A stretch of 64,000 nucleotides of DNA from an uncultured virus (IMG/VR IMGVR_UViG_3300032136_000003) (IMGVR_UViG_3300032136_000003), one strand, 5' to 3'. Positions 14,709-63,745 are shown, numbered from the stretch's first letter. Numbers and translations: made by a program. The notes: generated from the sequence alone by a model not told the origin.

Positions 14709-14750
14709 AGAAGTTAATAACGGCAAGAGTAAAGAAAGAGAGGCTTCATA

Positions 14751-14879: not shown

Positions 14880-14888
14880 GGAGCACTC

Positions 14889-16199: not shown

Positions 16200-16214
16200 A
16201 GGAGACACAGTATT

Positions 16215-17258: not shown

Positions 17259-17260
17259 TT

Positions 17261-18403: not shown

Positions 18404-18481
18404 TGTTTGAAAAATTCAGTGGTGTGTGGTCGTTGGGCTCTTAGGAAATCATAATAAGGAAATCAAAGAGAAGGAAATAGA

Positions 18482-30190: not shown

Positions 30191-30524
30191 ACCGGAAAAA
30201 ATGCACAGAGACTTCTGCCCACGATGCGCCATTAAGCATCTAGGCAAAGCGAGTATATTATTGAAGGAAGCCAAACTGGGGTATCCGCACCATGTGTGGT
30301 ACGCCATGGCTAACATGAGTGAGGCCGAGGACGAGATAGTTGATATGATGCCAGCAGAAGCCGAGGCCATTCGTGAGGCCCGACTCAATGTTCAAACCTC
30401 GCTGACAGACGGGACTCGTTTCATACCAGACTTCGATTCTCTTATGACCATGGTTGCGGAAGGTGGTCTGCTGGAAGAGGTTATGGATACTCAGACGGAA
30501 CTGGATTTCTCCGGAGGCAAGTAA
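30183..30524 (+). CDS. hypothetical protein
   Basis: GGAGG SD; CPRC..KHL..A. Confidence 0.6.
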   Translation: MSEPEKMHRDFCPRCAIKHLGKASILLKEAKLGYPHHVWYAMANMSEAEDEIVDMMPAEAEAIREARLNVQTSLTDGTRFIPDFDSLMTMVAEGGLLEEVMDTQTELDFSGGK

Positions 30525-30742
30525 TGAAATTATTCTTAGCGTATGTATTGTTAATCATGTCCCCATTTTTATTGGTGGGGATGAGGGTGGCCGAAGAAGA
30601 CATGATCCACGTTCCAAGTTCCCCGACCCTTGAAGAGACGGTTCGGGAGCTGGGGAAACAAGGGATCATATGTAAGGTGTACGGGCACCATTGGAACAAA
30701 GATGTTTGCAAGGTATGTAACTTTGAGAGGGCAGAAAGATGA
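30524..30742 (+). CDS. small membrane-anchored protein with C/H zinc motif
   Basis: Hydrophobic N-terminus; CKVYGH.W...CKVC. Confidence 0.55.
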   Translation: MKLFLAYVLLIMSPFLLVGMRVAEEDMIHVPSSPTLEETVRELGKQGIICKVYGHHWNKDVCKVCNFERAER

Positions 30743-32127: not shown

Positions 32128-32958
32128 ATGGAAATGAAAGACAGTGGAAAGAGACAGAGCTTCGGTGACGGAGCTGCAGTTAGAGATTCATCAGAGGGTA
32201 AACCACAGATGCATTTGCTAAGCCCTTGGGTTTGGATGCACCTCCCGTACGGGCGTCATATAGGAGCGTTCCTGCTTGATAGGAACGGGAGTCACCTGCA
32301 CGACGCGTTCACGGAGATGTTGCAGAAGTATGGTTGGGACAGACTTTGCGTCTGGCTGGAGCTGGGCGCAGCTAAGTACTCCGAATTCAACTGGGCGAAG
32401 GGCATGCCCGTTTCAAGATGTATTGATTCCTTGGGTAGGCACTTGGTCAAGCTGGCTGCTGGAGAGGAAGACGAGGACCACGCTGCTGCTGCCATGTGTA
32501 ACATCATGTTCATCATTCATTACCTCAGTGCAGTCAACTTGGAAATGCTCGATGAGAGTTTCGAAGATACGTTTGACTTTGATATATTGAAACGTGAGCC
32601 GGAGGATGTTGAACCTGATCGAGATAGGGAAGCCTGCAGAAGCGCTGATCTGGAACCTATTAATGAGTTTATATCAGAGATGGCTGATATGTCCAGCAGT
32701 TACTTCAGCAAGCTGAGTGATAGGCAACTGGCAGCCCAGCATAAGGCAGACGAAGCGATGCTACGGCCTCCCGTGCTTCATCCAAGGGAGCCTCGAAGTA
32801 CGCAGGATGAGAAACGACAAGCCAAATTTTTCGGGCTACACCCGGAACTCAAGAAGGTCTTGGATAATCGAAAATATAATTCTACGAAAACACCCCCACC
32901 CGTTCACATGCCGGGGGGACGCCATACAACTTTGCCCGCGGGAGTAGTTCCTGAATAA
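32128..32958 (+). CDS. dATP/dGTP diphosphohydrolase domain protein (DUF5664-like) with C-terminal extension
   Basis: GAAKY..NW.KG......SL.RHL....GE.DEDH.AA..CN. Confidence 0.75.
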   Translation: MEMKDSGKRQSFGDGAAVRDSSEGKPQMHLLSPWVWMHLPYGRHIGAFLLDRNGSHLHDAFTEMLQKYGWDRLCVWLELGAAKYSEFNWAKGMPVSRCIDSLGRHLVKLAAGEEDEDHAAAAMCNIMFIIHYLSAVNLEMLDESFEDTFDFDILKREPEDVEPDRDREACRSADLEPINEFISEMADMSSSYFSKLSDRQLAAQHKADEAMLRPPVLHPREPRSTQDEKRQAKFFGLHPELKKVLDNRKYNSTKTPPPVHMPGGRHTTLPAGVVPE

Positions 32959-45600: not shown

Positions 45601-48600
45601 AATCGATCCCTATGAGTCTCGGCACGTTTGATAAGCATAGGAGCAGCTGTCTTTGAGCCGGTGGTCTCTAATTCAATCTCACCATCTGTCATGTTCACCA
45701 CGCCTTGAGCCGCTGGAACGTAGACCCATGATCTGGCTACTCTAAGCTTGGCGTTCAGGTAACCCATGTTGACTCCCTTAGAGTTCTCGTCCTGCTCTAA
45801 GGCTACCTTGTTACTAACTATGACAATATCTTTGAAGGCTCGTTCTTCAGGAAGCATGTCCGGACTATCTTCACTGAGATATGCCTTCATGTTTTCTGTA
45901 CTTAACAAGGCCTTGTGCAGAGCATTCCAAGAAGACTCGGTCTGTGTCAAGCGCTCCAAAGCCCCGTAACCATATCCCGGGCCAAGTGTCTGTTCGAACA
46001 CGGCTGCTAAAGCACCCAGCGCTTCAACGTTTTTCATGTTCTGAGCATCTTGATCCTCGTGAGATCGTTCAATGGTTATACCTTCGTCAGCGGCTTTATC
46101 GTTCTTTTCTTGCACAAAGGAAGCGCCGGGCGCTACCGCAGTCTCGTCTGACTTGGCTTCCTTCTTCTTGTGATCAGCGATTCTGATAAGTTCTTCAACA
46201 GCCGACAAATCTCTGTACAATTCTTTAGCATACTCACCAGGAACTGGAGGTGCTTCGAGATTTCTTTCTATAGCCATGAAATCAGCGAGGAGCGCACCAG
46301 CTGCGGCTTTCTCTTCTGGAGTATTATCTGCAAATAAATTAGCTTCTGCTACGGCCTGCAAGGCTGCGAGTTTATCATCCGGAGGCGCAGCATTGATGAT
46401 TACCTTCGCCTGTTCTACTTTGGCTTCGATAGCACTCAAGACATCTTCAGAAGGTGCGATTGACGCGCTCCCACCGAATATTTTGTCAAGCAAATCAGCT
46501 GCTGCCTTGTTCTCAGCATCTTCTTTACCTACCAACGAGGCCGCGTTGTCAATAACCTTAGGGGCCGGGGCTTCTTTGGGAGCTACTTCAGCGATTTCAG
46601 GTGCTGGAGCTAAACCGACTTCAGGCTCCGGTTCTTGTGGAGCGGGTTTCTTGGCTTCGGCCTTTTTAGGCGCGGCCTTTTTAGGCGCGGCCTTTTTAGG
46701 CGCGGCCTTTTTAGGAGCTGCCTTTTTAGCTTTAGGGGCTTCGGCTTTAGGGGCTTCAGCTTTAGGAGCTTCAGCTTTAGGAGCCTGACCTCTGTCTCCC
46801 TGAGGAAGTAGTCCGGGCAACTGATCATCTAAATCAGGCTCTGATCTCTTGACTTGCTTCTTGGCTTCTGCCTTAGGCTTGCCAGCTTCAGCGTCTTTGG
46901 CTGCTTTTTCTACTGTAGGCTGTTGAGCATTCTTGACAGCAGCGGCCACTCTATCTGCTATAAGGGCTCTCGCCTGCACGTTCAGCAGAGGATTGGCGTT
47001 CCACATCGCTTCCGTAAGATCGACAGATGTGACGCCGTCACGGGATGTAAGCATACCCCAAACGCCAGCCATCTCTGATATGAAAGCATCGATACCTGGA
47101 ACGGTGGACAGGGCTTCTTTTAACTGTCCAATCTCTTTCCTGAAAGGAGCGTTGCCAGGAACTTGGTCATATCCCATAACGGCGTAGCCAAACAACTTTA
47201 TTGCGGCTTCTATGTTATCACTGTCTTTCAACAGTTTGATCAGCGCTTTATAATCCCCAGCATCTGAACGTTCACTTATAGCCCGGTAAGCGTTAGTTAT
47301 AAATCTTGCTACAGCAGGTGGGTTCTTGTACCTAGAAGAGTACCCATTAACAGCCAAGTCGAGGTTCTTAAGAGCGCTTTCTCCTGAGTCTTCCCACATA
47401 GAATAACCACCAGCATCTAAACTAGTAGCGATCTTGTTAGCGCTGTTCAACGCACCAATACTTATAAACCAATTACCATCAGAATCTTGTCTTCCGAGCA
47501 ACGTATCTTTAACATACTTCTCAGCTGCTTTATCTGTTGACCCAGACATAGCACCATAATCAAATAGATTAGCCAAAAGTCTTGGGTTCTTGCTGCTTAC
47601 TTGGTTAGGGAGAGTGAGTCTATAAGATCTATCAGCGTTTAAACGACCTTCGAAACCACGCTGGGATAACTTACTCCTAGCGTCTTCCAGAGACATTACA
47701 TTGGTGGCACTACTTATATCTGAAACAGAAGCCGCCCCGGCTGGGTTCCAACCCTGGATTCTAACCTGACCTTTTCCAGCAGGTTTTATCGTAACCACCT
47801 CGTCATTGCCGTCGGCATCTTGCTTGGTGTAGAACTCTCCAATTTTACCCTTTGCCACGAAATCTTGATATCTCTTCGCCGACTCTACAAGCTGATCGAC
47901 ACCGCTCAGCATACCATCCTTGCTTGCTTCATCTGTCAAACGTATGCCCTGAGATATAGCCAAATCCCAAGCCTGCTCGGAGAATGGATTGTTTATTATG
48001 AAATCAAGTTCTTCGGGGGTGAGATCAAATCCAGGCAGTTCATCCGGAGTCATGCGGACCCTGTCAAGGTCGGCTGGTTCTTTGCTATCTGCTACGGCCT
48101 GTGCTGATGCCAACGCATCAACATCCACTACACCAGCCCTCAGTCCATGCTTGCCCAGTACTGTAGCAATGGCCTCGCGGTTAGCATCAACAGCATCTGC
48201 GATCGGATTCTTCTGGTTGCGAAGAGCCCAGTAATGTCTTTCGGAATCCAAGGGAACGCGAACCAAAGGACTGTCGTTGTCTAATGTAAGAGCGTTTAAC
48301 TTATCTCTGAGATCTTCGTAAGACAAACCATTGAGATCTTCTCCTGATTCCTTGAGGGCATCGTACACACGTCCCTTGACTTGAAATGTTTTTCTAGCCA
48401 TAGCTATGGCTTCCATAACAGATTCTTTAGCCAATACAGCGGCTTGCTTTGTGGCGTCTTCTTCTGATACGCCTTTCTTCAGCATGTTGTCTTTCAGTCT
48501 CTGATTGACTTGCGTGTACATGCTAACAAAAGCAGTCTTACCATCGAACCCAATCTTTTGGTCAGCGGTACTGTACCGAGGGTGGTTGATGAACTGTCCT

Positions 48601-50321
48601 GTGGCAACCATTTCGAAAAGTGTCAACGCTGTGTCAGCTATCTTTCCGGGGATGCTGGTGGGACGAGATGCTTCTATCTCAGCGAGGCGAGCTATATCGG
48701 TGGCTATTTCATCAACACCAGCCATCTCACGACCACGCCTATCCAAGATAACTTGATTGTCACCTTCAACAAGCGTGCCCTCGCCAGCTGGGTTTGTTCC
48801 ACCGTATACTGATTTTACTAATCTTGTGTGTTCTGAGAGACTCTGTCCCGATAAAGCAAGATGCCCTTGCTGTGCCGCTGACTTAATGCCAAGCGGAATA
48901 GCAAAGGATATTGCTTCTACCATGAACTGCTCTTTGTCAGGCCACATGTTTGACCAAGCGTCGGCTAACTGGCCTCGGTCTGTATCACCCTCTAATCCTA
49001 AAAGTCCTCTAGTAAATCCACCTACACGCTCTTCAAGTATTTCTTCTGCCCAGCCGTCGTAACCAGCTTTAGCCCAACGCTTTGCAACTGTGTCTAAGTC
49101 GCCCCCAGCACTCAACCAATCCACGGCCATTTTAACGCCGGCAGAAGTCGCCAGCTTTTCTTTCAAATAAGCCACTTTTCCCAGAGGCCCTTTGACTGCG
49201 GTGCTTGCTGCCTTTCCGGCAACGTCTGCGGCTTCCGTGCCAGCCTTTCCTAATACGCGGTCAAACATCTTAGCAAGACTTAACCCGCCCTCGCGTCCAG
49301 TGAGTTTACCCAATTTACCAGCCACAGGCCCTACCAACGCCCCACTGATCATTTCACCACTGGCTTCTGAATAATACTCAATCCAACGGTCAGCCATGGC
49401 CATCATCTGGGCGCTGCGCACTGTAAGGTCATCGCCCTCTATAGCAGCTTGTATCAATCTTTCCTCAGCACCGCGGGACGCCATAGCGTCTCTACCCATA
49501 GCCGTGTTAGCTAGCGCGTTGACGCCTGTATCGGCGAGCGCTGTGAATGTTCCCACCTCAGCAAGTTTTATAGCACCCTTAGTCAATGCCGCGGTGTACT
49601 CAGCGCCTGCGGCTTTTGTCAAATATTTAAGGGCTGCTTTGGCCGCTTTGTTGGACGCTTTCTTTGTCAAACCTTTTTTGACTCCAGCACGTAGCGCACC
49701 GCCGGTGACTTTGAAAATACCAGCGGCCAAACCACCGCCGGATCCAACAGCCGTTGTTACGGGGTCTGGTGATATAGCTCCGATAGCAGTACCTGCAGCG
49801 GTGTAAGCTGCGATCTCGGCCATAAAACCAGGCATGGCCCTTGTTACATCACCAACCTTGCCGCCCAAAGTAGCCTGGCCTTTGCGCTCGGCATCCGCGA
49901 GATACAACTGGGCATATAAGGCCTCCTGATCGCTGATAGGAGACCCCTCATCAAGTTTCCGGAACGTATTCGCTATATTACGCATCTCCCTAATAGGGAT
50001 CAGGCTGCCCACAATGTCACCTACAAAAGGCGCGTCAGCGCTTGAAATATCAGATAGAGCTTCCACGAAACCTCTCGGACCTCTTTGCTGGCTCTTAAGA
50101 ACATCTAGATATTCCTTGCCGCCGTCGAGAGCTGATATCTGATTAGGGGATAGGTGGACTCCGCTGAGCATACGCACGTTATCTGGTGAGGCCACCCACT
50201 TGTCAGAGATCGCCGAAGGCAATTGGGGCGCTGCGTAAGCATCTTCTGAAGATAGAGGAATCGAATTGTCGACGGGCACGGCACTAGAACTATCGAGATA
50301 AGAACTCAAATCTATGGGCAT
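33699..50321 (-). CDS. 5540-aa virion protein: two-barrel RNA polymerase + RecD/Dda-like helicase + lysozyme-like domain
   Basis: SDG (about 44375), RIP (about 43000), GGDYDGD (DYDGD at 42873-42887); GYAGTGKTT, IIIDESSMV, VGD.YQ..PV, AHKSQGS, YTAITR; FEG...DD.G..AIGPG; AAGGAG SD. Confidence 0.85.
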   Translation of the reverse strand: MPIDLSSYLDSSSAVPVDNSIPLSSEDAYAAPQLPSAISDKWVASPDNVRMLSGVHLSPNQISALDGGKEYLDVLKSQQRGPRGFVEALSDISSADAPFVGDIVGSLIPIREMRNIANTFRKLDEGSPISDQEALYAQLYLADAERKGQATLGGKVGDVTRAMPGFMAEIAAYTAAGTAIGAISPDPVTTAVGSGGGLAAGIFKVTGGALRAGVKKGLTKKASNKAAKAALKYLTKAAGAEYTAALTKGAIKLAEVGTFTALADTGVNALANTAMGRDAMASRGAEERLIQAAIEGDDLTVRSAQMMAMADRWIEYYSEASGEMISGALVGPVAGKLGKLTGREGGLSLAKMFDRVLGKAGTEAADVAGKAASTAVKGPLGKVAYLKEKLATSAGVKMAVDWLSAGGDLDTVAKRWAKAGYDGWAEEILEERVGGFTRGLLGLEGDTDRGQLADAWSNMWPDKEQFMVEAISFAIPLGIKSAAQQGHLALSGQSLSEHTRLVKSVYGGTNPAGEGTLVEGDNQVILDRRGREMAGVDEIATDIARLAEIEASRPTSIPGKIADTALTLFEMVATGQFINHPRYSTADQKIGFDGKTAFVSMYTQVNQRLKDNMLKKGVSEEDATKQAAVLAKESVMEAIAMARKTFQVKGRVYDALKESGEDLNGLSYEDLRDKLNALTLDNDSPLVRVPLDSERHYWALRNQKNPIADAVDANREAIATVLGKHGLRAGVVDVDALASAQAVADSKEPADLDRVRMTPDELPGFDLTPEELDFIINNPFSEQAWDLAISQGIRLTDEASKDGMLSGVDQLVESAKRYQDFVAKGKIGEFYTKQDADGNDEVVTIKPAGKGQVRIQGWNPAGAASVSDISSATNVMSLEDARSKLSQRGFEGRLNADRSYRLTLPNQVSSKNPRLLANLFDYGAMSGSTDKAAEKYVKDTLLGRQDSDGNWFISIGALNSANKIATSLDAGGYSMWEDSGESALKNLDLAVNGYSSRYKNPPAVARFITNAYRAISERSDAGDYKALIKLLKDSDNIEAAIKLFGYAVMGYDQVPGNAPFRKEIGQLKEALSTVPGIDAFISEMAGVWGMLTSRDGVTSVDLTEAMWNANPLLNVQARALIADRVAAAVKNAQQPTVEKAAKDAEAGKPKAEAKKQVKRSEPDLDDQLPGLLPQGDRGQAPKAEAPKAEAPKAEAPKAKKAAPKKAAPKKAAPKKAAPKKAEAKKPAPQEPEPEVGLAPAPEIAEVAPKEAPAPKVIDNAASLVGKEDAENKAAADLLDKIFGGSASIAPSEDVLSAIEAKVEQAKVIINAAPPDDKLAALQAVAEANLFADNTPEEKAAAGALLADFMAIERNLEAPPVPGEYAKELYRDLSAVEELIRIADHKKKEAKSDETAVAPGASFVQEKNDKAADEGITIERSHEDQDAQNMKNVEALGALAAVFEQTLGPGYGYGALERLTQTESSWNALHKALLSTENMKAYLSEDSPDMLPEERAFKDIVIVSNKVALEQDENSKGVNMGYLNAKLRVARSWVYVPAAQGVVNMTDGEIELETTGSKTAAPMLIKRAETHRDRLIGSPKVMGEIVAMYEKVENDANLAPRERLTEDSVISRLKKDPAWASDYFDFLARWTGAPKTLFSSAAKNATGLKRLSGLSKTIEYHFGVARQKNLITSESQYKRGQAITKAMNDNWIGVQQSNKGQPNAVLIADAANMPNWVIPTFKANSGKGFTPLRGTNGFLEGVKAFAKELDIPFHEAILFVPEFSINKFTHIKASELYKNPVAYATVRDMMWKHGYVHTGSLGDKDSSYWLKLPKTNLAELVSLYEKEYNDPNRMRIEAAALISPADMRDMQKEFNNAKGVDSIKTFDIARQMHYAYYGLKFDTAMSGSLRAYVSTEVGKISKSLLMTMGELSTALTEAENLESIPIVQKMLATKSKRDGNQLTGATLTLEGLPDMLKELDPDRSGDNLRVAFVDMNDVHGNSDGQYFFSGNVGRALAKMLSEEHAGSTESAYSLKMQISGAFKDLAHLDKMNGVNIEELAASNRGAEGTVSPTDKALKEFMDHFGIDFIVPTSNMKVPSKESFGLPNITDYRIGDVINKDGLMGLDALTESGEDLNGLSYEAIRDKLLAAMAPRVSKFIQEMNPKNFRVPQVLHGDTYAKYKRAARQIQAIMLDVPHAMATPIIDLMARYSDVAGQSLMPTREELTQVAIKALEARDPLLAESLRNGSRSIVSPDVISKTQVLRAVVSSVEFKTRRAMGQNIAEFAAKKANILTEYNQNITVADNGLIDRKNNVVMSAVMDGNISGVRPAIYGARGKAFEGREDIIGFVKNSFRFNFNRSNGDALLKTPNDYYKFESPEGKAARLPYADLFVSETEGRAAAPNEIAFTEEDGIPWIPAGAPIVQLDSKGRPILDASIIRDAIRQLDNGEWVLLGGTVLDVRIPSVDLASGQVARLRNNIGNKKSNLVRLADERYKYSGGDYDGDATHMIVAGDFYTDTKEGISNRVVRLMIEAYNDVDVATWSTMSIEDVNKKFGIYGAEATEEAMKKRTAPLKLNSDEYTVDTMVKGRAGSDVLAIAAKSGTTVRLLNAAGAYLMDTENPIIVATDDGETLVIRRSFRDVEAIRTDRNAWNREQLGMYLASSGIVNLDVDDPKLRQVADMGLTALVQSMLIPAIAWDADTLNPEAGGDYNHKVEFEAAANRAISLMKTLASSELIQAVDKASNDGAQMLTPDGKQKSVATLMYDIAENMLTDEERKRLDEAKITAVAEVLDDPEDVKKAEKQATKDFLKNKSQFAGIIRLYEASVDIRKMGQINDLMFGSPKLESLGVIMNSLKTASKWVNEDILRDGGEITFVDKGEDSALAAPVRVLASKLKDTLPSALYSATDNGSMLYSWKQSASDSARHGDVSIETHLKNVAGLIALRHMVNNSGISDLNPMFNASRLNDLIAEYPENTFLQLVTESREVTNALRLQPLYEGSAGIQLTEPELLRVQKDFDALPRELQLELFINGVASYGSVAGTYIGSFVPFTGGPESQFRKDLTKAELSVHNDWFRNMDIEGSDWAAALAGTMAVSNVTAYNRRRIAATAMFSDLGLNFVKGSGIDAGNVIYLESEAGAKSGSEPDLDSQNLDSEGDPFTSKKANKNLNAIIQEKYDTTSIFDASEKVAQLLGVTPKGKAAVAVTSRANLEDGISGQAAAALDAMEFEATPEFFEAPEGLDLDADVGVEPDLEGEFEPPPTGSVFGRGEAAPKAVAGGMSDALRAIASAPQEGEEALDQGDVAALLPELTVTDWNLLSEAAGQPVNEENFFDVADNAVVLGKLRRAEAAPKDPELARAEQVNQEAEDILKADADSAIGSGEAPAAAVNQATAPVEKLNPTREEADALDSNILTARRDTLLPTVEQAEALQAIAEFLKSDAAEAELVGYAGTGKTTMMENVVRHQQYLDPSVSVSIWALSNQATNIVRGKMEANGVSADISTIHKGLFGEKDPETDKWVPRGLTEGSFIIIDESSMVDKDLYETIKSETAKVGARVLYVGDNYQIEPVGAPSFVLHVNKSPIPSTFKTTLSGVMRQASDSDVLVMATKTRQDNVPSIPVGAGTEQFKIYDTAQDQKFIRDYQDDVKRDSEQTIMVTATNRQRNMYNRYARKALFGADANNMLNEGDRLMGVANAVGVSNSELFTVTEAPASESDEYEFTVQATKGSGKYKKDITVPVKRVTAQINTLGEGGPRRVTMYFVTAMDIPSLYHPDILKGISRETLIKLMDKGDIKKDKEGKLGVSKKLVIATYGYAVTAHKSQGSQWETVYVDQDYVAPSWNAGRWYYTAITRTSDKVKLLHRPGVYRELDMETARSEVVSEAPQIIERPGTTSASIVDAKSAVQAKSRAAYEYARVRGNYGESIPRPMPESARNDMRFFNAEIKAHAERFDRIRTDKNRKPELITRDLTREISRDRIGGLSQADTRLYTNRLKPLISTKEAAAPARQVAPVQQPLFSPTPSGVEIAATGETTASIRELVAAGLIATAVTPTMDARGKVGNPIESVKQLNMEQAAAARIASFEGRTGRNMSAYDDLGTPAIGPGIRLFDKRKAEIEKITGASFEDLKSGKKSITEAEYDALLNHFTKKYIAKARKDIAGFDKLSTERQVAIVDLYHWSVLPGFKNMLEAINEGDFVMAQLELRDSKLYRRSDMAGLRARVENTMDIFDRTYDGTGKRTSNIWADRAKSRDQLVSWHMKQKAIKLGEKEQAAMEHAKKEGKNKVAIEAAKIKSAWDKALVGYKAAPTFEAARASLMAIKDQKIYGMDNATILSLLEHAANNVPRMQTARMSDHNIIPHKIPPYAMVQEAGDSDYVDGTVSASVLNAAEVLNSIIAPSLIGGSNALHRILMKEQGKLSAILAEESAHYTKIIHEWALGDGGQVRAFITEKTKIDLKGNRGEGPELTRTTHASGATRNKLTEDERKLAEVVQAAAMASMEHATKDGKTDHKAALEVAHVITGIFTENDKSIYDVFPKEIADQLLEAKKKVMAGIKMDGKSRPEQLARDRAVARALHAAGIGIYQKVPINVGDADYRADATETLANGQEEDSNWRPTKMNWMVPVSMIDKYFRSSSYRQKLLDAGRDPKRMDIAELARETSERLENLYKEVTTDLPWFVSPDAPYLWHRENYVTHYKGIGFLGTEEKAARLALEKNIQAVLEKNMESHRLTLAASKEASGRVRSLTDASYKMLKFAFGLKGLHFKNEGQAISEIRSGAHKDIGLTPDMDYADLANFIHGEVYDRLLARLANAQKTLDDPIKLADGDMLEHPLALAKATGEMMVDFKNRGYSNRTKTRKYSTYEDAYMLGGYRPDSIGANEMLHKYASDIMTSTANRAMINQMLLTTDAANTPLVIPSPNLNYAGENLVTDVTWEAVAQNLSRYLGKPLDKTQSAKWNIDQMVQDHFVKNKGYTRVESPYPSVNAFYTIHRGRGGENILDAAMAGGEVAGILKHVFETPWQDPYGALKGIERANAWMKMGALQFSLFFPIAGLESLTALSHGEFWRQGGLKMLLEFEEAIKSEHPYVVELMKKGRKIGITYSDSSHPLSLPRGILEKDIAKMTDWVLTNIGKKAADNFEMIAKLPLKQTEIVFDSFFNSAKLWAAHFMAQKLEAEAEAAGLPFDFEEDMAPYVNYINGELGGVNWNKMSYMTPTWRRNLSLLMFSPNWSISAWRAAGGELLTGAFSKTYLSDQEFKHIMFRRWPTMMLGVITLVPAMVQALAYTAGRAFGPPDDDDEFFMFNNEEGRKFSADITPLVRNLPFYKGYPTGERRTYIRWGKQAYEIKRWLDTPWGSLTGKLSQPARWAIEQATGESAGGGGWELEFKDMGLAGLIMSEDGGFMGSRAGYTVQKFMPFSILAWSKHPDAAPFQLLGPTSKGISFRGATEAYTGLLETWAKAGGTDNIYKNKKVKANLEALGPAILDAANRNGYDGEKVLKSARGVVMKELYAKLYRAIDGNDKVSTEKWSRAILRVNGTIRSTQRSMKSRNFLYGKPRKLTDQQKEWIEDAFRNP
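46647..46784 (-). repeat. 15-nt coding tandem repeats (KAEAP / KKAAP)
   Basis: Encodes (PKAEA)3 then (KKAAP)4 in the giant ORF. Confidence 0.85.
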
Positions 50322-55711: not shown

Positions 55712-56191
55712 TTATTCATCCTCCAAATAAGCGGCGGCCTTACGCAGAACGTCGGGGCGGTCCCTGAAATACCCCAGCCCAAAATTGCACCACTTGCACA
55801 ACAACCCGCGGACAACTCCGTCCACATGATCGTGGTCTACGCACAACCTCAATTCAAACTCTGCTTGATGTCTGCCGCACACGGCGCATCGACCTCCCTG
55901 AGCTTCAAACATCTTGACGTAATCCTCTGAGGTCACTCCATACTTTCGCAGCAAATTGCCCGCAGATTTGCGCAGGCGGTCGGCATCCCTTTGGCATACG
56001 TCTCCACAGTACTTCTGGTGAGCCGTCGCGGGCGTGAACAGGCTCCCGCACATCTCACACTCTGTATCAATCCTAGCCGCGGCCCGCAAATCTTTTTGTA
56101 TCTCGTGATGGTGCCTTTGCCCGCATTCGCTCGAACAAAACTTTGTTCGGGCACCCGACAGCTCTTTTCCACATACTATACAACTTTTCAT
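55712..56191 (-). CDS. recombination endonuclease VII-family (homing-like) nuclease
   Basis: KYGVT..DY..M...Q.G.CAVC...VDHDH...VRGLLC..CN.GLG.F.D; N-terminal zinc modules. Confidence 0.9.
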   Translation of the reverse strand: MKSCIVCGKELSGARTKFCSSECGQRHHHEIQKDLRAAARIDTECEMCGSLFTPATAHQKYCGDVCQRDADRLRKSAGNLLRKYGVTSEDYVKMFEAQGGRCAVCGRHQAEFELRLCVDHDHVDGVVRGLLCKWCNFGLGYFRDRPDVLRKAAAYLEDE

Positions 56192-56200: not shown

Positions 56201-57901
56201 TTAAATTACGTAACTAAATGATGATAAAGTTATACCTGAAACAGCGGAAGAAGTCAACATTATTCCTTCACTATTGTCGCATAAATCTGGGGGAGCCTCC
56301 GTAAGTAGATCCACCACGCACCGGAAGGCATCTATCTGAGCACGCCCAGTCCACTGAATAGAAAACTGAAAACGAGTTCCTGTGTAAAGCAAATCCTTTG
56401 AAACGGGGTCGCAACCAGCCTCGTCCGCGTTCACGCTGAAACGGAGTCTGTTGCGCTGTTGAGGCAAGCTACCTGCAGGTACTTCAATGTTCCTTGTGCC
56501 CATAGAAGTCCACAAAGGATACCCATGAGGCCGGTAAAATATCTCAAACTCAGTATCTGTCGGTATGTTCGATACCCATAAGTCAATGTATTTGAGCTTC
56601 TTCTTGGCAACCAGGTCTCCGAAGTTGAATACCCGAGTCTCAATACGGGCTTCTATTGGAGTATCCGTGCCATCAAACACAGCATCATCATCTACCCGGT
56701 ATAGTACCGGGCCTTCTGCAAATACAAACATAGTGCGTACGTTATCTTTGAACGCGTTTAGAACCTGTGCAAAATTTGCACCGGTCCAAATCCCATCGTA
56801 TGCTCCTACGCCCTGCGCTCCGCTATACATCCCAGCAGCGACATCCCAAGAGATAAGGCCTTGGAAGTAGTAAGTATCCGTACCAGAAGCGGTTATAAGT
56901 ACCCTGTTGTCTGCCGCGGCAGAAGACGTTCTAGCAAGATAATCGTAATCTCCTACGAGATATTTGTCGACTTCGATAGACATCGGGGTATTGGAAAGTG
57001 CGCCACTATTACCTGACGACTGACTGGTTGAATACTTTAAAACCCGGATACCATCTTGACTTCTATACACTAAATCGTTATTAACATTGAGAATACTCCA
57101 CGGACTCAAGGTCCCGGCGCCGAAGAACAATACCTGAGACAAGGCTTGGTCTTTCCAGTACGCACGCTGTATAGAGAAGTCAAAGGCACATACGCCCTCC
57201 CGACCAAAAGCAACTACCTGACCAACACCCGTACCCGACAAAGCGTTTCTTATAGCCCCCAAACCATGGATAAAACCCATCTCAGCTGGTAGAGAATGAG
57301 CCCCGCCCTCGGAGAGATACTCAGTTTCTGTAAAAAGTAAAGCTGTTTCATTGTCCAAGGGCTGCAGAATATCACCACTCACGAGGTATGCCCTGCCGTC
57401 CTGACTCGTACTAGGTACTAATGTAGGTACCATGTGCAGGCGTCCTTGGGCGAAGATCATTGTGTAACCTGTTGGTATAGACTGAGTTCCGGAGAATACT
57501 GTAGGAACTCCAGCAACAAGTTGCAGTATTATAGGAGCGGAGACCCCGTCTTGAATGACCATGAACTCGTCAACTTGTTCGAAGAAACATTGGGCGGTTG
57601 CATTGAGCAATGAGCCGAGGTTTACCAAAGTCAGTGAATCTACGCCCAAGGTATATAATACGCCATCGCACACATATACGAAGCGATCTCCGGACGCGAG
57701 ACTCCAAACGCCGGCGCCTTGGAACAGGCCCTGTGGTAACGATATGTCCTCTAGAACTAAAGCGGGGCGTGTCTGAACGAGTCCGCCACGCGCTGAGACG
57801 TTGATACCATCAGAGTACTGCAACTCAGACAATAAAGCTGGGTTGCGGTATCCATTCATACCGTCTCTCAGTTCAACAAATCCTTCTACTTGTTCTGGCA
57901 T
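56201..57901 (-). CDS. probable tail nozzle / tubular protein B (beta-propeller)
   Basis: Beta-rich 566 aa; N...RGG..TRP N-terminal motif; IETR.F.FG....KK C-terminal motif. Confidence 0.6.
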   Translation of the reverse strand: MPEQVEGFVELRDGMNGYRNPALLSELQYSDGINVSARGGLVQTRPALVLEDISLPQGLFQGAGVWSLASGDRFVYVCDGVLYTLGVDSLTLVNLGSLLNATAQCFFEQVDEFMVIQDGVSAPIILQLVAGVPTVFSGTQSIPTGYTMIFAQGRLHMVPTLVPSTSQDGRAYLVSGDILQPLDNETALLFTETEYLSEGGAHSLPAEMGFIHGLGAIRNALSGTGVGQVVAFGREGVCAFDFSIQRAYWKDQALSQVLFFGAGTLSPWSILNVNNDLVYRSQDGIRVLKYSTSQSSGNSGALSNTPMSIEVDKYLVGDYDYLARTSSAAADNRVLITASGTDTYYFQGLISWDVAAGMYSGAQGVGAYDGIWTGANFAQVLNAFKDNVRTMFVFAEGPVLYRVDDDAVFDGTDTPIEARIETRVFNFGDLVAKKKLKYIDLWVSNIPTDTEFEIFYRPHGYPLWTSMGTRNIEVPAGSLPQQRNRLRFSVNADEAGCDPVSKDLLYTGTRFQFSIQWTGRAQIDAFRCVVDLLTEAPPDLCDNSEGIMLTSSAVSGITLSSFSYVI

Positions 57902-57910
57902 AATAAATCC

Positions 57911-58522
57911 TTACCACGGACCGTTGCTATACACATCCACCCAAGCATACGTTGCCGGGCCCGTTTGCGCTACCATCTGCAGTTTCGCCGACGCGGTCGG
58001 GGTAGTACCGACCACTGTATATCTCAGAGTACCCACGTTCGAGGCACTTGCTGCGGATGCGTCATCAGGCACCTGCTGGCTCTGAATCGCCCACTTCATG
58101 CCTCCGCTTGACGCGGCATCCGCCGTCAGCAAATGCCCATCGGTCGGAACGTTAACTTTCAAATTAGCTTCGTCTATAACGTTGTCCGCTATAGTCAACG
58201 CGGTAGATCCCGTAACTTCTCCGGTGTGAGTTGCATTACTGATCTTTGCGGAGTTAGCCGTGATCGCTGATACGTTGACTCCTGAATCTCGGACCAACCT
58301 CCCGCTAACACCATCGTAAGATGCAAGATTATTGTTTATCGAAGAGGCCGGGCCTTGCATGTACCTAACGTCTAACGCAGCTAACACAGAGGCGCTATCG
58401 AGCCTATCCCAATTCACGTCTGCGGGAACGAGCCAAATCCCGGGGACAGTGTCCGCGCCGCCTTGAATAAACAGAGTGCGCATAGCCCCGATCTGAGCCG
58501 AGCTGAGTTGCTGCATGGGCAT
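57911..58522 (-). CDS. fibre-like structural protein
   Basis: NNLASYDG.SGRL..DSG, HTGEVTG, LTADA....GMKW fibre-type motifs. Confidence 0.55.
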   Translation of the reverse strand: MPMQQLSSAQIGAMRTLFIQGGADTVPGIWLVPADVNWDRLDSASVLAALDVRYMQGPASSINNNLASYDGVSGRLVRDSGVNVSAITANSAKISNATHTGEVTGSTALTIADNVIDEANLKVNVPTDGHLLTADAASSGGMKWAIQSQQVPDDASAASASNVGTLRYTVVGTTPTASAKLQMVAQTGPATYAWVDVYSNGPW

Positions 58523-58542: not shown

Positions 58543-59016
58543 TTAGCCTCGCTTCTTCTTCTTGGTCTTAGGCTCTTTTTTCTTGTTCTTAATCTTATCT
58601 TTCTTCTCTTGATCTGTTATCGGAGGAAGCCCGATTTTATTATCTTCACGAATGACATTTATCTCGTCATATAACGTATCTATAACAGCTTGAAGTTTTG
58701 TATCCCAATTCTCGTAACTTTTAGAATATTCTTCTGCCGCAAGTTTAGCCGCACTTTTAATCGCAGGATCAAGGGCATCCCATCCAGCAGAATGCTGAGC
58801 TTGATTAACGAATACTCTGTAGTATCTTACGGTTCCACCATACCTGTCGTCATTGTATTCTATCATCAATGGGAAGTCATTTGTACTAGCTGTATATCTA
58901 GACCTAAGAGAATCATCAACAAGATACGATTCAAATATATAATATGTATCCTGAGCCTTAGCTATAGTTACAAGACATCCCAACATGAACAACACTATTA
59001 TAAAATATTTCTTCAT
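58543..59016 (-). CDS. signal-peptide protein with Lys-rich tail (fibre-associated?)
   Basis: MKKYFIIVLFMLGCLVTIAKA-QD Sec-type signal. Confidence 0.6.
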   Translation of the reverse strand: MKKYFIIVLFMLGCLVTIAKAQDTYYIFESYLVDDSLRSRYTASTNDFPLMIEYNDDRYGGTVRYYRVFVNQAQHSAGWDALDPAIKSAAKLAAEEYSKSYENWDTKLQAVIDTLYDEINVIREDNKIGLPPITDQEKKDKIKNKKKEPKTKKKKRG

Positions 59017-59020
59017 CACA

Positions 59021-60580
59021 TTACCTTTCTATTGTAAACCCATGTAGTGCGGAATCTGCGCCTTCATCATCAGCTTGTCCTGTATATCTTACTGATCTAC
59101 TAGGTCCTAGTCGTAAAGGAAGCGGTCCAATACGCTGATCGTCGTATCCCTTGCAAATAATTTCACCGCGTTCATAAGCCCATGTACTTAATACAGCAAC
59201 GTGTTCAGTTGTCTTTATCTTTGTCCAACAAGTAGAAGCTCCATCTTCACAATGGGCATCTAACCAAGCATCAACAGCATTAACAGGAGTCCAGTCTTCA
59301 ACCTGAGCGGTATTGGCAACATCCCAAGTGCTTGGTCCAGTAAGATTCTGATTGATAACAGTAGCAACAGTAAGACCAAATGTGAACTTGCCTCTGTCTT
59401 GCAAATATTCAAAAATAACACCTGTACTTGCTTGTTCTAATACTGCCCACAACACACGATCTTCAGGGATAGCCCCGTTGTACCAACCAACTAAGTTAGT
59501 GGAAAATGTTGGCTCGTTAGTAGATGAATAGATTGCCAAGTCATTAGGATATGTAGAACCAGAATCATCTATGTAGTAATAGTGAAACACATTGTAAGCA
59601 GCTCCAGCGGGAGTTATATCTACATTTGTTTCTATCAGTAATTGAAAATAATTACCATTACATAGTCCAGCACCTACATTTATCTTAGTAGTATCTCCGT
59701 CTACATAGTTACCGTAGCAACCGGTTATATAAGAAGGAGATGTTGCAGCCAACGCCCTGATGGTAGTTGTGAAGTTGGTGTTGTCTGCTACCGCATTGAA
59801 TACGGAATTACTGGCCGCCTCATTCCCGAAAACGAGGTTACTATTAAACGTGGTCGTGTCGTTGAAATCGGCGGGGCCGTTGAAATCGGCCGTGCCGTTA
59901 ACGGTCAGATTAGACAGCGTCGTGTCGCCTTCAACATCTAGGTTCCCACCGATCCAAACGTCGTTAGTAAATCTAGAATCAGTACCCACAAAAAGATCGT
60001 TTCCAACATAGAAATCATTCGTTACTATACCGTCGTTTCCGACGTATATATTGTGTGCAACATACAAGTCGTTAAACCTTCCAAGAGTGCACGTCAAAGA
60101 CACGATATTTGCGTTGTCTATGATAACATTCTCAAACGACTGCGTCCCTGTAAAATTGTCACTATAAACACCATCACCTATATCGAAGCGAGTCGTGTCG
60201 CCCCACTCAGGCCAGCGATAAATAAAGTCAGCATCTCCAGAGGCCGTTCCCGCGCCAGAAAAGACTGGGTATCTCCCAGCCCTAAATACGACATTGGTGA
60301 ATTCCATGTTGGCACCCGTATCAACAACCAAGGTACTGCCGTTAACCACTTCGAATACTGCGTTGCTGGGTATAACGACGTCGTTAGTTATTGTCCACGC
60401 GCCACCCGAAAGAATTATAGTAGGTTGGTCAGCCGCTTTGATCCGGTCTATGACGTAGTTAAGTGTCGCAGAATCTCTATTTCCGTAGTCGGCTGGGTAT
60501 ATTTCCTGCCGCTTATTCATGTCAGCAAAAGAGTGTGCTACCAAAACGAAAGACAGTATAGTAAATAGTAGTTTTCTCAT
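59021..60580 (-). CDS. signal-peptide tailspike/fibre-like beta-helix protein
   Basis: MRKLLFTILSFVLVAHSFA-DM; 6-residue-period beta repeats (NDLYVA, HNIYVG, NDGIVT, NDFYVG...). Confidence 0.6.
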   Translation of the reverse strand: MRKLLFTILSFVLVAHSFADMNKRQEIYPADYGNRDSATLNYVIDRIKAADQPTIILSGGAWTITNDVVIPSNAVFEVVNGSTLVVDTGANMEFTNVVFRAGRYPVFSGAGTASGDADFIYRWPEWGDTTRFDIGDGVYSDNFTGTQSFENVIIDNANIVSLTCTLGRFNDLYVAHNIYVGNDGIVTNDFYVGNDLFVGTDSRFTNDVWIGGNLDVEGDTTLSNLTVNGTADFNGPADFNDTTTFNSNLVFGNEAASNSVFNAVADNTNFTTTIRALAATSPSYITGCYGNYVDGDTTKINVGAGLCNGNYFQLLIETNVDITPAGAAYNVFHYYYIDDSGSTYPNDLAIYSSTNEPTFSTNLVGWYNGAIPEDRVLWAVLEQASTGVIFEYLQDRGKFTFGLTVATVINQNLTGPSTWDVANTAQVEDWTPVNAVDAWLDAHCEDGASTCWTKIKTTEHVAVLSTWAYERGEIICKGYDDQRIGPLPLRLGPSRSVRYTGQADDEGADSALHGFTIER

Positions 60581-60581
60581 G

Positions 60582-61025
60582 TTACGCCCCTATGTTAATT
60601 TCACTAGACACAACCAAAACACCGTTAATGCCCTTGAGAACAAGGTACCAAGTGTCGGTCGGCCCCGTGTTAGTAAATACAATGGTTGCAGATCCAGAGG
60701 CGTCAAGTACTATTTCATGATCTATCCACCCAGGAACAGGCGGTGGGGACAGTGTCTTTACGCCGGGCACAGAATCGTTGTCAATTAGGTACGCGTCAAC
60801 AGCTATGAAATCTGCGATGTCGCTAGTAATAACAGCCGTGGCTTGCGTGTCACTGTCTTTGGTAACCGCGATGCTCAAGGCAGCCGAATCAATATTATAT
60901 GTGTTTTCGTTTATGGTGACCGGAACTTCTTCGGGACAAGCACCGTTGAAACAACTTACGCAGTTACCCATTTCGCCCTCCTTAAAAACGCGAGGTGTTT
61001 TAGCACCTCGCGATGTGTTGTCCAA
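60582..61025 (-). CDS. small beta-rich structural protein
   Basis: Tightly packed in virion operon. Confidence 0.5.
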   Translation of the reverse strand: MDNTSRGAKTPRVFKEGEMGNCVSCFNGACPEEVPVTINENTYNIDSAALSIAVTKDSDTQATAVITSDIADFIAVDAYLIDNDSVPGVKTLSPPPVPGWIDHEIVLDASGSATIVFTNTGPTDTWYLVLKGINGVLVVSSEINIGA

Positions 61026-61478
61026 TTATGGGGTTGTTACATCTGCATCGAGGACGTTAGTTACTCCGCCTTCAACCCAGTTGAGTGCATTTCCAGTTCT
61101 CTCAAGAGATCCAGAACCTATCGAGAAAGTGAGTCCCTTGACGTCTGCGTCAAAAACAGCATCTTCGTCAACAGACAGAGTTCCCTGAATGTCAGTGAGA
61201 ATTGTCGTATCCGCTATTTCAACGCTAGTTGCTGTAGCCGCACCCACTGTGAGCGCTGCTGCAGTTGCTGCGTCGATGTTACCACTAACATCGCCGGTTA
61301 CATCGCCGGTTACCCCGCTGCCTACAGTAATAGTATCCACAACAGGAGTACCTAAACTGACTTTACCGCGCTGAATATTCGTGATCTTCTCCAGTGCTTT
61401 GTAATCGGTCTCGGCATAAACAGCCGATGCGATAAGGCACGTACAGGCGATCGCAAATAATATTTTTGATTTATTCAT
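61026..61478 (-). CDS. signal-peptide fibre-like small protein
   Basis: MNKSKILFAIACTCLIASAVYA-ET; GVTGDVTGDVSGN repeat; AGGAG SD. Confidence 0.65.
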   Translation of the reverse strand: MNKSKILFAIACTCLIASAVYAETDYKALEKITNIQRGKVSLGTPVVDTITVGSGVTGDVTGDVSGNIDAATAAALTVGAATATSVEIADTTILTDIQGTLSVDEDAVFDADVKGLTFSIGSGSLERTGNALNWVEGGVTNVLDADVTTP

Positions 61479-61497
61479 AATTACTCCTATTTAAAGT

Positions 61498-61549
61498 GGT
61501 CCTTGGAGCCTTGGCTATAAAGAGACGGAAGTCGCCAAGACTCCAGGAC
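61498..61549 (-). other. intergenic hairpin
   Basis: GGTCCTTGGAGCCTTGGC / GCCAAGACTCCAGGACC. Confidence 0.5.
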
Positions 61550-61560
61550 CGAGGACTAAA

Positions 61561-62094
61561 CTATTGAGCATTACCAAGTATATACGGCAGATAAACCGTG
61601 AACACACCAGAGGTAGCTGCATCTCCAGAAACAGTCAATGCGATCTTGTCATCAGCTGTCGTGATTCCGGAAGTCGTAACACCAGCCTTGATACCAGTAC
61701 TACCAAGGGTTGTTCCTGTTGCCAGAACTGTGACACCACCTACAGCCAGCGCGTTTGTAGACGTGGCCGGAAGTACGGCTGTAGATACTTCTATCACAGC
61801 TTCCTTCAATAGGATTGCTCCTTTAGGGAGGTCGACAGAACCAAGATCGATAGCACCAACAGCCCCGCCATCAGTCGCAAAATCATACGACGCGATAAAG
61901 AGTCCGAGTCTATCTTCCTGAGTTGCATACTTCGATATATCCTTTGAGACAGTAGAACTGCCCAGAGGACCATCGTCCGTCAGTGTGTTAATCGTGATAA
62001 CCTGACCGCGATTAGTGATCGTTAACGCTTGAGCAACTGAAACAATCATGAAGAGTGCTAAAGCGCTAGCAAGTATTTTATATGAACTACGCAT
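61561..62094 (-). CDS. signal-peptide protein resembling a capsid decoration/minor capsid beta-sandwich
   Basis: MRSSYKILASALALFMIVSVAQA-LT; YDFA.DGG..GAI.L....LPKGA...; directly after capsid gene. Confidence 0.6.
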   Translation of the reverse strand: MRSSYKILASALALFMIVSVAQALTITNRGQVITINTLTDDGPLGSSTVSKDISKYATQEDRLGLFIASYDFATDGGAVGAIDLGSVDLPKGAILLKEAVIEVSTAVLPATSTNALAVGGVTVLATGTTLGSTGIKAGVTTSGITTADDKIALTVSGDAATSGVFTVYLPYILGNAQ

Positions 62095-62114: not shown

Positions 62115-62143
62115 GGCTCCAGCTGGGTTATCCAGCCGGAGCC
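62115..62143 (-). terminator. hairpin after capsid gene
   Basis: GGCTCC.GCTGG/CCAGC.GGAGCC; weak U tract, so likely leaky. Confidence 0.55.
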
Positions 62144-62149: not shown

Positions 62150-63745
62150 TTAGCTTTTTGTTACAGTACTAACTGCAGCAGTGAAGTCCGTGTAAGCGGA
62201 AGGCTCGTTAGAAGCCCCTTCTACCCATGTGAACGTATACTGCGGCGCCAGTGAGCTATCGGCGATCTTAGCGGCGAACGCATTAGAATCAGCCTTCACT
62301 ATGGACACGTTGTCTCCAACACCAGCCTCAAGCAGGTTAGCCAAGGTCAGCGTAACTCTGTTGAGAGTATCATCGAAGTCGCCAGTGACAGCATCAGATG
62401 CAACCGAGATGGCTCCAGTTGATACGTCGCTGTTATCCTCGATCGCACATGCTGTACGTATGGAGTGAGCGCAGCGCTTGTAAGCGAAGACTGTACACTC
62501 TGTAGCGAACAACAGTGGTTTCGGGAACAGCTGGAATCTTCCGTAGAAGAAGCCGTGCTCGCCGAGCATGTTGGTGACAGGATCCTGAATGTTGATCCAT
62601 TTCCATTCACCAGTCATACCAGGCTTAGGCCCGAAGACCATGCCGGAACCGAGGTTATCGACGCTCGGTACGAACAAGTTCTGAAGAACGTCGTTCATAA
62701 AGATAACACCAATACCGATTTCAGCACGGAAGTACTGTGGGTTAGGAATAGGCACGTTACCGATTGTCACAGCGCGACCAGCCTTGAGAGGCAGTACGCG
62801 TGTAGCAACGACGTCACCGTTCGAATCGTAACCCTTGACTCTGAAACGCATCTGACGTGCATCATGCATAATTGCAAATCCACGGTAGATTTTCATTCCC
62901 ATGTCATAGCCGTCGATCAGAGCCTGCGGTCTTGCATAGCGCCAATCTTCGTATGTGTTTGAATCAGCTTTGATCATGCGCTCGAAATCAAGCACGTCGA
63001 TCATGAGACCAAAGATAGGCATGTTACTTTCCATACCAAGAGCAGCCTCACCAGCCCTATCATTAAGGTTCGTACGCAGATAGTCGAGGAAGTCCCAGTT
63101 AAGGGTAGACAACTCTGTATTAGCGTCAAACGTTATGTAAGGAACTGCATCGCCATCAACATCTGCTACAGTAGCAAACGGATCATAGCTGAAACGATAT
63201 GCGGAGTTCTCTTCGAAATCCAAGCCACCGTTGGCCATCAACATACCGCGGTTAGACAGCATAGCCTGCTGTACATACATTTCACGGTTCCAGTTTTCAA
63301 GCATAGAAATACCATACTCTACACCAGTACGAACGATGAGAGCGAGCTGATCTTTTGCATAATCAACAAACTTCATGTCGTTAAGACATACAGGCTCGGA
63401 CTGCCATTCATCCTGGTATCCAGTGTACTGAACGGTTTCCCATGCATAGCTGTAAGTCTGCGGTGTGCCTGGAGCACAGTTATCGAATCCGGCGTCGCCA
63501 GACGATGGTTTACGAGAAGTGCCAATATCTTTCCAAGTGCTCAAACCAGCCTGAACTGGGAGACCACCGCGATAGATATTTGTCTTCTGTGTAAGACCGT
63601 TGAAAAGCTGGTACGTACCCCTTGGAATCCGGTCGTGCCAGATGTTAGGGTTTTTCATTGTACGAGCTTTTATAAACTCATCCCAATGCTCAGCCATTGT
63701 GAGCATCTTATCATTGTAATATTCTAATCCCGTGATAGGGGGCAT
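62150..63745 (-). CDS. probable major capsid protein (531 aa)
   Basis: GGAGG SD before MPPITG; own promoter and downstream hairpin; heads the virion operon; called from size and context, not a diagnostic motif. Confidence 0.7.
   Translation of the reverse strand: MPPITGLEYYNDKMLTMAEHWDEFIKARTMKNPNIWHDRIPRGTYQLFNGLTQKTNIYRGGLPVQAGLSTWKDIGTSRKPSSGDAGFDNCAPGTPQTYSYAWETVQYTGYQDEWQSEPVCLNDMKFVDYAKDQLALIVRTGVEYGISMLENWNREMYVQQAMLSNRGMLMANGGLDFEENSAYRFSYDPFATVADVDGDAVPYITFDANTELSTLNWDFLDYLRTNLNDRAGEAALGMESNMPIFGLMIDVLDFERMIKADSNTYEDWRYARPQALIDGYDMGMKIYRGFAIMHDARQMRFRVKGYDSNGDVVATRVLPLKAGRAVTIGNVPIPNPQYFRAEIGIGVIFMNDVLQNLFVPSVDNLGSGMVFGPKPGMTGEWKWINIQDPVTNMLGEHGFFYGRFQLFPKPLLFATECTVFAYKRCAHSIRTACAIEDNSDVSTGAISVASDAVTGDFDDTLNRVTLTLANLLEAGVGDNVSIVKADSNAFAAKIADSSLAPQYTFTWVEGASNEPSAYTDFTAAVSTVTKS

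Follow-up and report, generated by a model that had tools for sequence, protein, structure and literature searches.

Described systems and the present locus

Tailed phages assemble in the cytoplasm, and textbook accounts place the whole of their assembly there. In a 64-kb stretch of DNA from the uncultured virus IMGVR_UViG_3300032136_000003 (64,000 nucleotides, the whole of which is called the window below), we found a cassette of six genes downstream of a capsid-like gene, in which four products (s1, s2, s4 and s5) begin with predicted Sec leaders and two (p3 and p6) are leaderless. Sec-type leaders are familiar from the coat proteins of filamentous phages (Ff), which assemble at the envelope. 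These phages differ, however, in belonging to another virus realm and in assembling by extrusion through the membrane, and we know of no tailed phage that assembles in this way. Products with Sec or lipoprotein signals also occur among the structural genes of tailed phages, as with lambda lom and bor, T5 llp, and T1 and phi80 cor. Unlike the cassette, each of these is a lone accessory gene whose product has an outer-membrane or lipoprotein fold; they are not homologues of cement or fibre proteins, and no whole family is known to keep them together as a cassette.

The fold class closest to s1 is that of the cement proteins of short-tailed and related phages, namely cyanophage Pam1 (PDB 7EEL chain H), Ralstonia phage GP4 (8H89 chain J), Helicobacter phages KHP30/KHP40 (7DN2, 7DOU) and Bordetella phage BPP-1 (3J4U chain H), which share with it a jelly roll with an N-terminal arm and a gene adjoining the major capsid gene. 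In the matched cement chains (124-155 residues) the alignment begins close to the N-terminus, whereas s1 carries a conserved, predicted-cleavable Sec leader. A further difference is that no sequence-level match was found between them and s1, and that short variants at the s1 position exchange the jelly roll while keeping the arm. We take the matched chains to be made without a leader and to bind the capsid in the cytoplasm. For s4, a counterpart is found outside phages: the mosaic adhesive trimer (MAT) fibres of Bdellovibrio bacteriovorus (e.g. Bd2133; PDB 8OND, 8OK3) have a signal peptide, a conserved beta-rich N-terminal domain of ~130 amino acids and a variable trimeric shaft and tip, which is also the build of s4.

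A precedent by analogy is provided by Cellulophaga phage phi18:3 (Pachyviridae), a cultured tailed phage. Its gp085, gp086 and gp087 are entered as 'structural protein' in record KC821620.1 on the basis of experimental tandem mass spectrometry (MS/MS) proteomics, and all three have Sec-type leaders, which are absent from the other nine MS/MS-structural proteins encoded within record bases 30000-71443 (~41 kb). As in the present virus, the leader-bearing proteins are encoded by adjacent genes that form a cassette. In contrast, phi18:3 is an unrelated phage of a Bacteroidota host, its leaders are followed by Q at +1, and the three genes do not lie beside the capsid gene. No Pfam family was found for gp085-gp087, and to our knowledge none of them is of cement type. 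The titles and abstract openings seen in a search of the full-text literature contained no description of exported cement or fibre proteins of tailed phages.

The present locus combines export signals on a cement homologue and on fibre-type proteins, kept across capsid divergence down to ~35% identity. If borne out, this would mean either that the particles receive their outer layer from the periplasm at lysis, a route of assembly that would be new, or that virion proteins have repeatedly been turned into secreted factors acting on the envelope. Both outcomes change the annotation of such genes, and one public gene call of s4 already hides its leader. The question is open to direct test, since the cultured phi18:3 has leader-bearing proteins marked as structural in its record.

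Four of the six cassette products carry predicted Sec leaders

An earlier note on this DNA had read classical Sec signal peptides at the start of four of the six genes that follow the capsid gene, and both the number of leaders and their predicted cleavage sites held up. The cassette genes are as follows (predicted cuts are marked by a slash).

61561..62094, minus strand: s1, 177 amino acids; leader codons 1-23 (62094-62026), predicted cut VAQA/LT
61026..61478, minus strand: s2, 150 amino acids; leader codons 1-22 (61478-61413), predicted cut VYA/ET
60582..60971, minus strand: p3, 129 amino acids, true start ATG 60971, not TTG 61025; no leader
59021..60580, minus strand: s4, 519 amino acids; leader codons 1-19 (60580-60524), predicted cut SFA/DM
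58543..59016, minus strand: s5, 157 amino acids, start ATG 59016 (or GTG 59019); leader codons 1-21 (59016-58954), predicted cut AKA/QD
57911..58522, minus strand: p6, 203 amino acids; no leader

Each of the four leaders has two K/R residues in the n-region, a hydrophobic core of 12-15 residues and small residues at -3/-1. A Shine-Dalgarno motif (GGAG, AGGAG, GGGG or AAGG) lies 5-10 nucleotides before each of the four leader-containing starts, and p3 has AAGGAGG 6 nucleotides before ATG 60971. The internal ATG of s4 (codon 21) has no such motif. Together with the conservation of the leaders described below, this answers the concern that the true starts might lie downstream of the hydrophobic segments. 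The public gene call of s4 (P0121, 499 amino acids) begins at this internal Met 21, and several s4 homologues likewise look as if their calls had been truncated within the leader, so that automatic gene calling may miss some leaders of this kind.

The leaders were scored with a crude rule-based test of our own, not a trained predictor. Seven of the 69 open reading frames (ORFs) of the window were positive, 4/6 in the cassette versus 3/63 elsewhere (Fisher p = 5.6e-4), and the controls gave 5 positives among 335 reversed proteins and none among 120 capsid homologues. As the earlier note had stated for the capsid, nozzle and adaptor, leaders are absent from the capsid-like protein and from the 566- and 355-residue late proteins. 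It is well supported by these sequence features that s1, s2, s4 and s5 are true Sec-exported precursors. Lipoprotein signals were looked for with the lipobox pattern [LVI][ASTVI][GAS]C. The s5 leader deviates from it (MLGC, with M at -3 and L at -2), as does that of s2 (AIAC, with A at -3), in which a better AXA site follows further on. Relatives at the s5 and s2 positions mostly lack a cysteine at the lipobox position.

Leaders are conserved at the same positions in related loci

A profile of 31 capsid-like homologues retrieved 3 viral, 63 metagenome and 5 genome-bin loci; L001-L066 denote 66 related loci, and the 3 viral loci contain little DNA downstream of the capsid gene. Among the 54 of L001-L066 with at least 330 nucleotides downstream, the first ORF after the capsid gene was leader-positive in 45. 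Four of the other nine (L005, L017, L050, L060) prove to have a leader-bearing s1 when the ORF or its start is chosen correctly, L051 is ambiguous, and L045, L047, L048 and L065 encode true leaderless homologues. The first gene after the capsid gene is an s1 homologue or a leader-bearing protein of the TVTN type in nearly all 54 loci. The leader cassette is also present in 5/5 genome-bin relatives, the fifth of which (L071) is the same contig as L056.

The s1 family profile matched 48 ORFs in the loci at E <= 0.01, 44 with a leader and 4 without; 27 of the sequences had been used to build the profile and match by construction. An independent search of 5.8 billion proteins found a leader in 57 of 60 s1 homologues, the three without being the most distant ones. 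For s4, 101 of the best 150 homologues have a leader, and several of the others are visibly truncated calls. For s2, a leader ending just before ETDY is present in all six BLAST homologues (five test-positive as called, that of L036 after start correction). Conservation in homologues, which the earlier note had proposed as a check, was accordingly found for all three families.

Predicted leaders have a mean length of 20.9 amino acids. Their sequences drift while their features are kept, and the predicted cut always falls just before the conserved mature N-terminus, which reads TVTN.GQV(I)TV for the s1 family and ETDY for the s2 family. A drifting leader with a fixed cut position is the pattern expected of working signal peptides. 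Over distinct ORFs of the relatives, 67/124 were positive in the interval from the capsid gene to the 566-residue gene, 15/202 upstream and 0/16 downstream; the ORFs are related by descent, so that the p value of 2e-22 overstates the evidence.

The order s1, s2, p3, s4, a small leader-bearing ORF, p6 and the 566-residue gene recurs in the relatives. In L035, the stretch from the capsid gene to the 566-residue homologue (11643-19469, plus strand) holds nine leader-bearing ORFs, one of which matches pectate-lyase-like families weakly (E 3e-4, short of the Pfam cut-off). In L010, L011 and L012, a leader-bearing s1 is followed directly by leaderless genes and the s2-s5 cassette is absent; for one of the leaderless genes after s1 in L012, a weak match to the SU10 adaptor was obtained (E 1.5e-4, below cut-off). 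Because these three loci keep the leader of s1 without s2-s5, the s1 leader is independent of the other exported genes.

Leaderless s1 orthologues begin at the mature N-terminus

In L045/L047, L048 and L065 the gene at the s1 position is homologous over the whole mature domain (hmmsearch E 1.8e-5, 3.9e-8 and 1.4e-9, respectively). These proteins begin with M(TQ)TIDTY or MSIDTY, which corresponds to the mature N-terminus of the exported forms. A profile-profile alignment of s1 with the L047 protein is weak when taken alone (probability 32%, E 4.9e-4). In L045, L047 and L048, no gene from the capsid gene to the end of the locus was leader-positive at its start.

A FastTree phylogeny of 53 capsid proteins, from which L065 was left out (capsid ORF below 450 amino acids), united L045, L047 and L048 in one clade (support 100), whose sister group (99) is leader-bearing. 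A single change is enough to explain the presence and absence of leaders on this tree. Under midpoint rooting, which does not itself establish the root, the leader state reads as ancestral with one loss. A bridge to cultured phages was sought through the distant leaderless s1 homologues but not found: P0333 led to two hypothetical proteins of Cylindrospermopsis phages at E 4e-3, and P0335 to none.

If s1 works in both the exported and the leaderless form, it can have no essential role in the periplasm before lysis. Its shared function should then be within reach of both compartments, which implies that it is exerted at the particle or at a stage after lysis.

Mature s1 and s4 resemble cement and fibre proteins

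The earlier note had described the mature parts as looking like decoration, fibre or spike beta-proteins. This stood for s1, with its cement-type jelly roll, and for s4, which is of fibre type; s2 is fibre-like by its build only, and s5 has no assigned fold. None of the cassette proteins of the window matched a Pfam or PHROGs family.

An AlphaFold2 model of mature s1 (154 amino acids, leader removed, 28-sequence alignment, predicted local distance difference test (pLDDT) 84.5) begins with a beta-hairpin (1-11), which a disordered linker (16-27) joins to a jelly roll (40-150). Its fold matches were 7eel_H of Pam1 (9.7; root-mean-square deviation 2.7, 109/140 residues aligned, 20% identity), 8h89_J of GP4 (9.5) and 7dou_4 of KHP40 (8.1). 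The top four Foldseek matches were also of cement type (E 8e-4 to 2e-3), and 35 predicted viral structures matched at E <= 1e-3. The s1 gene starts 55 nucleotides after the capsid-like gene. On the basis of the model, s1 is a predicted jelly-roll homologue of capsid cement or decoration proteins. At the sequence level no homology to a known cement protein was detected: PDB profile matches were at chance level, and tblastn against 50,697 phage records, Pfam and PHROGs gave none.

The model of s4 (pLDDT 80) comprises a short beta-helix domain (mature residues 4-125), a low-confidence shaft (126-260) that a monomer model cannot resolve, a beta-prism (262-382) and a jelly-roll tip (374-497). Foldseek returned nothing at E <= 1e-3. 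By exhaustive HMMER search, 327 proteins were homologous to s4 in either its N-terminal or its C-terminal part, and the C-terminal domain also occurs in leaderless proteins with N-termini of tail-fibre type. Among 79 aligned s4 homologues, two contain a Phage Tail Collar domain and three a C1q domain, and a leader-bearing cassette protein of L009 has a Phage Tail Collar domain at E 4.5e-13. Ten homologues traced by cluster come from metagenomes only and bear no informative name. This modular build is shared with known fibre proteins, and s4 is a chimera of fibre or receptor-binding type.

In mature s2, about 40 N-terminal amino acids are conserved (ETDY..I..IQ.G.DN.NQI..LRV) and the C-terminus is variable. 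The mature part of s5 ends in poly-lysine, and its leader contains the cysteine of MLGC. No family, no usable protein-atlas neighbour and no BLAST homologue in the loci were found for s5, and the relatives have small leader-bearing ORFs in its place that lack a cysteine at the lipobox position. The leaderless p3 has a cysteine-rich N-terminus (C..C...CPE.VP), followed by an N.T-rich strand and a beta-rich part; its motif is shared by leader-bearing and leaderless clades (L005, L013, L016, L027, L033, L038, L047, L067). In p6 the N-terminus is conserved among relatives (..PSQI..L..) and the remainder is variable, and from this build and its position p6 may be a tail-docking fibre.

We also considered export for the sake of disulfide formation as a candidate. 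Of 88 distinct mature cassette proteins, 48 contain no cysteine (s1, s2 and s5 included), 31 an odd and 9 an even number, which does not support this candidate. The idea of the earlier note that the proteins are folded or modified in the periplasm thus gained no support from the cysteine counts.

The cassette lies in the late operon next to the capsid-like gene

The window is part of an 83.6-kb contig, the longest one carrying the capsid-like protein. A single late operon runs on the minus strand from 64000 to 33699. It comprises, in this order, the capsid-like gene, the six small to medium-sized cassette genes, the genes of the 566-residue protein and endonuclease VII, genes for proteins of 355, 405, 173 and 826 amino acids, and a giant gene for 5540 amino acids. 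The features that flank or punctuate the cassette are the following.

62150..63745, minus strand: capsid-like gene, 531 amino acids from ATG 63745 (the ORF from GTG 63811 is too long); no leader
62115..62143, minus strand: stem-loop just 3' of the capsid-like gene, -26.2 kcal/mol, z -6.3, equalled by 0/200 shuffles
61498..61550, minus strand: long stem-loop 3' of s1, -35.7 kcal/mol, z -5.3, equalled by 0/200 shuffles
60989..61012, minus strand: terminator-like hairpin with UUUUU between s2 and p3 (consensus scan), -16.7 kcal/mol, z -3.2
56201..57901, minus strand: 566-residue late protein, the 'nozzle' of the earlier note; no leader

The capsid-like protein has 132 metagenomic homologues, nearly all of ~530 amino acids and starting at the Met of ATG 63745. 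Its nearest protein-atlas neighbours are clusters of phage major capsid proteins (score 0.92-0.89), which serves as a lead only. No sequence match was found in Pfam, PHROGs or the PDB, where profile rows were at chance level, and none of the 50,697 cultured-phage records matched the capsid-like or the 566-residue protein by tblastn. In the relatives, genes for ~800 and ~420 amino acids lie upstream of the capsid gene, in what is a portal and scaffold position by gene order only. The 566-residue protein has 11 homologues among the loci, each time at the end of the cassette. Its label as a nozzle found no support (PDB sequence profile 0 rows, PHROGs 0/8 members, no family), and the adaptor label was likewise not confirmed by family and PDB sequence searches.

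Since the capsid-like gene, s1 and s2 each have a strong stem-loop directly 3', we infer that this stretch is a high-copy segment ending after s2. Family scans recognised no lysis gene in the window, which lacks ~20 kb of the contig. A lysis cassette may sit in these ~20 kb, which probably hold the portal, terminase and lysis genes.

How the putatively exported proteins might act

In the explanation that we favour, s1, s2, s4 and s5 would cross the inner membrane via Sec, and signal peptidase I would cut their leaders and bare the conserved N-termini TVTN.GQV (s1 family) and ETDY (s2 family). The cut proteins would then wait in the periplasm. At lysis, holin lesions would merge cytoplasm and periplasm before the outer membrane breaks, and the proteins could dock on DNA-filled particles, s1 as cement or decoration, s2 and s4 as fibre-like proteins with an N-terminal docking part and s5 as a small accessory. 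The docking step builds on the three-step lysis of double-membrane bacteria. We consider this the most likely reading, with a probability of roughly 0.45; export, cleavage and above all docking are the conjectural steps, and joining of the particle at lysis has in our view roughly even odds. An addition at or after lysis is in keeping with the leaderless orthologues, whose starts coincide with the mature N-terminus, and with the structural annotation in phi18:3. Rather tentatively, and at somewhat less than an even chance, we extend this to a two-compartment particle that would be ancestral and family-wide: head, tail and ejection proteins would be made in the cytoplasm, and cement and fibres would be exported by Sec, perhaps pre-assembled in the periplasm, and added at lysis.

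Several points weigh against periplasmic storage and docking. Known cement proteins act in the cytoplasm, and no benefit of export is evident, the cysteine counts giving none. Short variants at the s1 position (87-126 amino acids) keep the leader and the N-terminal arm but have the jelly roll replaced; an anchor with a variable head therefore fits them better than a structural cement. Virion membership, export and cleavage of the four proteins are predictions. The note in the phi18:3 record does not state whether the detected peptides derive from protein bound to particles, and phi18:3 is no relative of the present phage. Finally, the five relatives in genome bins fall into Oscillospiraceae, Thermoguttaceae, Eubacteriales, Verrucomicrobia and Kiritimatiellia, five different taxa that are too mixed for naming a host.

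The alternative that survives best holds that the four proteins descend from virion proteins but are now exported, have left the particle and exert their effect on the infected cell's envelope or from it. They could possibly form adhesive fibres on the cell surface or on vesicles, exclude superinfecting phages, mask receptors or be freed at lysis as lectins or fibres; secreted receptor-blocking proteins, the alternative offered in the earlier note, are a possible form of it. Export removes proteins from the cytoplasmic site of assembly, the distal parts vary fast, and the MAT fibres of Bdellovibrio show the build of s4 in a setting other than a virion. Leader-bearing non-virion genes are also familiar inside tail modules (lambda lom and bor, T5 llp, T1 cor). 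However, leaderless s1 orthologues starting at the mature N-terminus cannot act in the periplasm before lysis, and s1 has the gene position of a decoration protein together with a cement fold. Furthermore, s1 and s2 lie in the putative high-expression stretch together with the capsid gene, the cassette shares its transcription with the late structural genes, a late moment for an exclusion factor, and family scans revealed no outer-membrane route encoded nearby. Altogether we regard an envelope role as quite possible, with the odds leaning against it.

That some of the four proteins, chiefly s5, are lysis or envelope-disrupting accessories, such as spanin-like proteins or cationic disruptors of the outer membrane, appears improbable. 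The small size of s5, its predicted export, the cysteine in its leader and its poly-lysine tail would suit such a role, as would the lack of a recognised lysis gene anywhere in the window. Yet MLGC misfits the lipobox, the small ORFs of the relatives have no cysteine there, s1 and s4 have virion-type folds, and the lysis cassette may lie in the ~20 kb of contig beyond the window. A lipoprotein or spanin assignment of s5 was rejected for want of a lipobox, a C-terminal membrane helix and an embedded or overlapping partner gene.

We give similarly little credence to the view that the hydrophobic N-termini do not serve export but act as a tether on the cytoplasmic side of the membrane or as propeptides for a phage protease, with ordinary cytoplasmic assembly. 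In its favour, beta proteins that fold fast can fail to be exported, the folds are of virion type, and the leaderless orthologues work without the N-terminal segment. Against this, dozens of diverged homologues keep a full Sec signature (basic n-region, core of 8-17 residues, -3/-1 site), the cut by signal peptidase I takes place on the periplasmic side, and Pfam and PHROGs recognised no protease near the capsid gene. An artefact of chance hydrophobic N-termini or wrong start codons, at which the home-made test and the public s4 call P0121 might hint, is close to refuted by the Shine-Dalgarno motif at the upstream but not the internal s4 start, by leaders in homologues that lack Met 21, and by the enrichment in the window (4/6 vs 3/63, p = 5.6e-4) and in the relatives (67/124 vs 15/202).

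Other features of the window

Further down the late operon, an endonuclease VII gene (55712-56191, minus strand; PF02945, E 1.2e-23) lies between the genes for the 566- and 355-residue proteins. These two genes adjoin in L004, L013, L056, L059 and L067 with nothing between them, and for this reason the endonuclease gene looks like a mobile nuclease insertion particular to this phage. The last gene of the operon is the 5540-residue giant ORF (33699-50321, minus strand), in which Pfam sees only a RecD/Pif1-type helicase at about residues 3400-3830 (AAA_30 E 7e-22, UvrD_C_2 E 1.5e-11) and recognised no RNA polymerase family.

The plus strand, up to ~33.6 kb, encodes a helicase, a DUF2800-type exonuclease, an RNA ligase, a family-A DNA polymerase and a primase-helicase-like protein. 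A protein with a MazZ-like dATP/dGTP pyrophosphohydrolase N-terminal domain (32128-32958, plus strand; PF18909, E 5e-15; PHROG 801) is encoded next to a 5'-deoxynucleotidase, a pair that hints at altered nucleotide pools or a modified base; a PurZ-like family was not seen in family scans of the window proteins. A 72-residue ORF (30524-30742, plus strand) has a strongly hydrophobic N-terminus and was positive in the leader test; it matched no Pfam or PHROG family and is possibly a small membrane protein. ARAGORN found one tRNA-like gene (6139-6211, plus strand) of undetermined identity with the four-base anticodon tgcg. At 18482-22092 on the plus strand, an rIIA-like gene (916 amino acids, PHROG 612, E 1.8e-55) stands beside an rIIB-like gene (288 amino acids, PHROG 609, E 7.6e-54).

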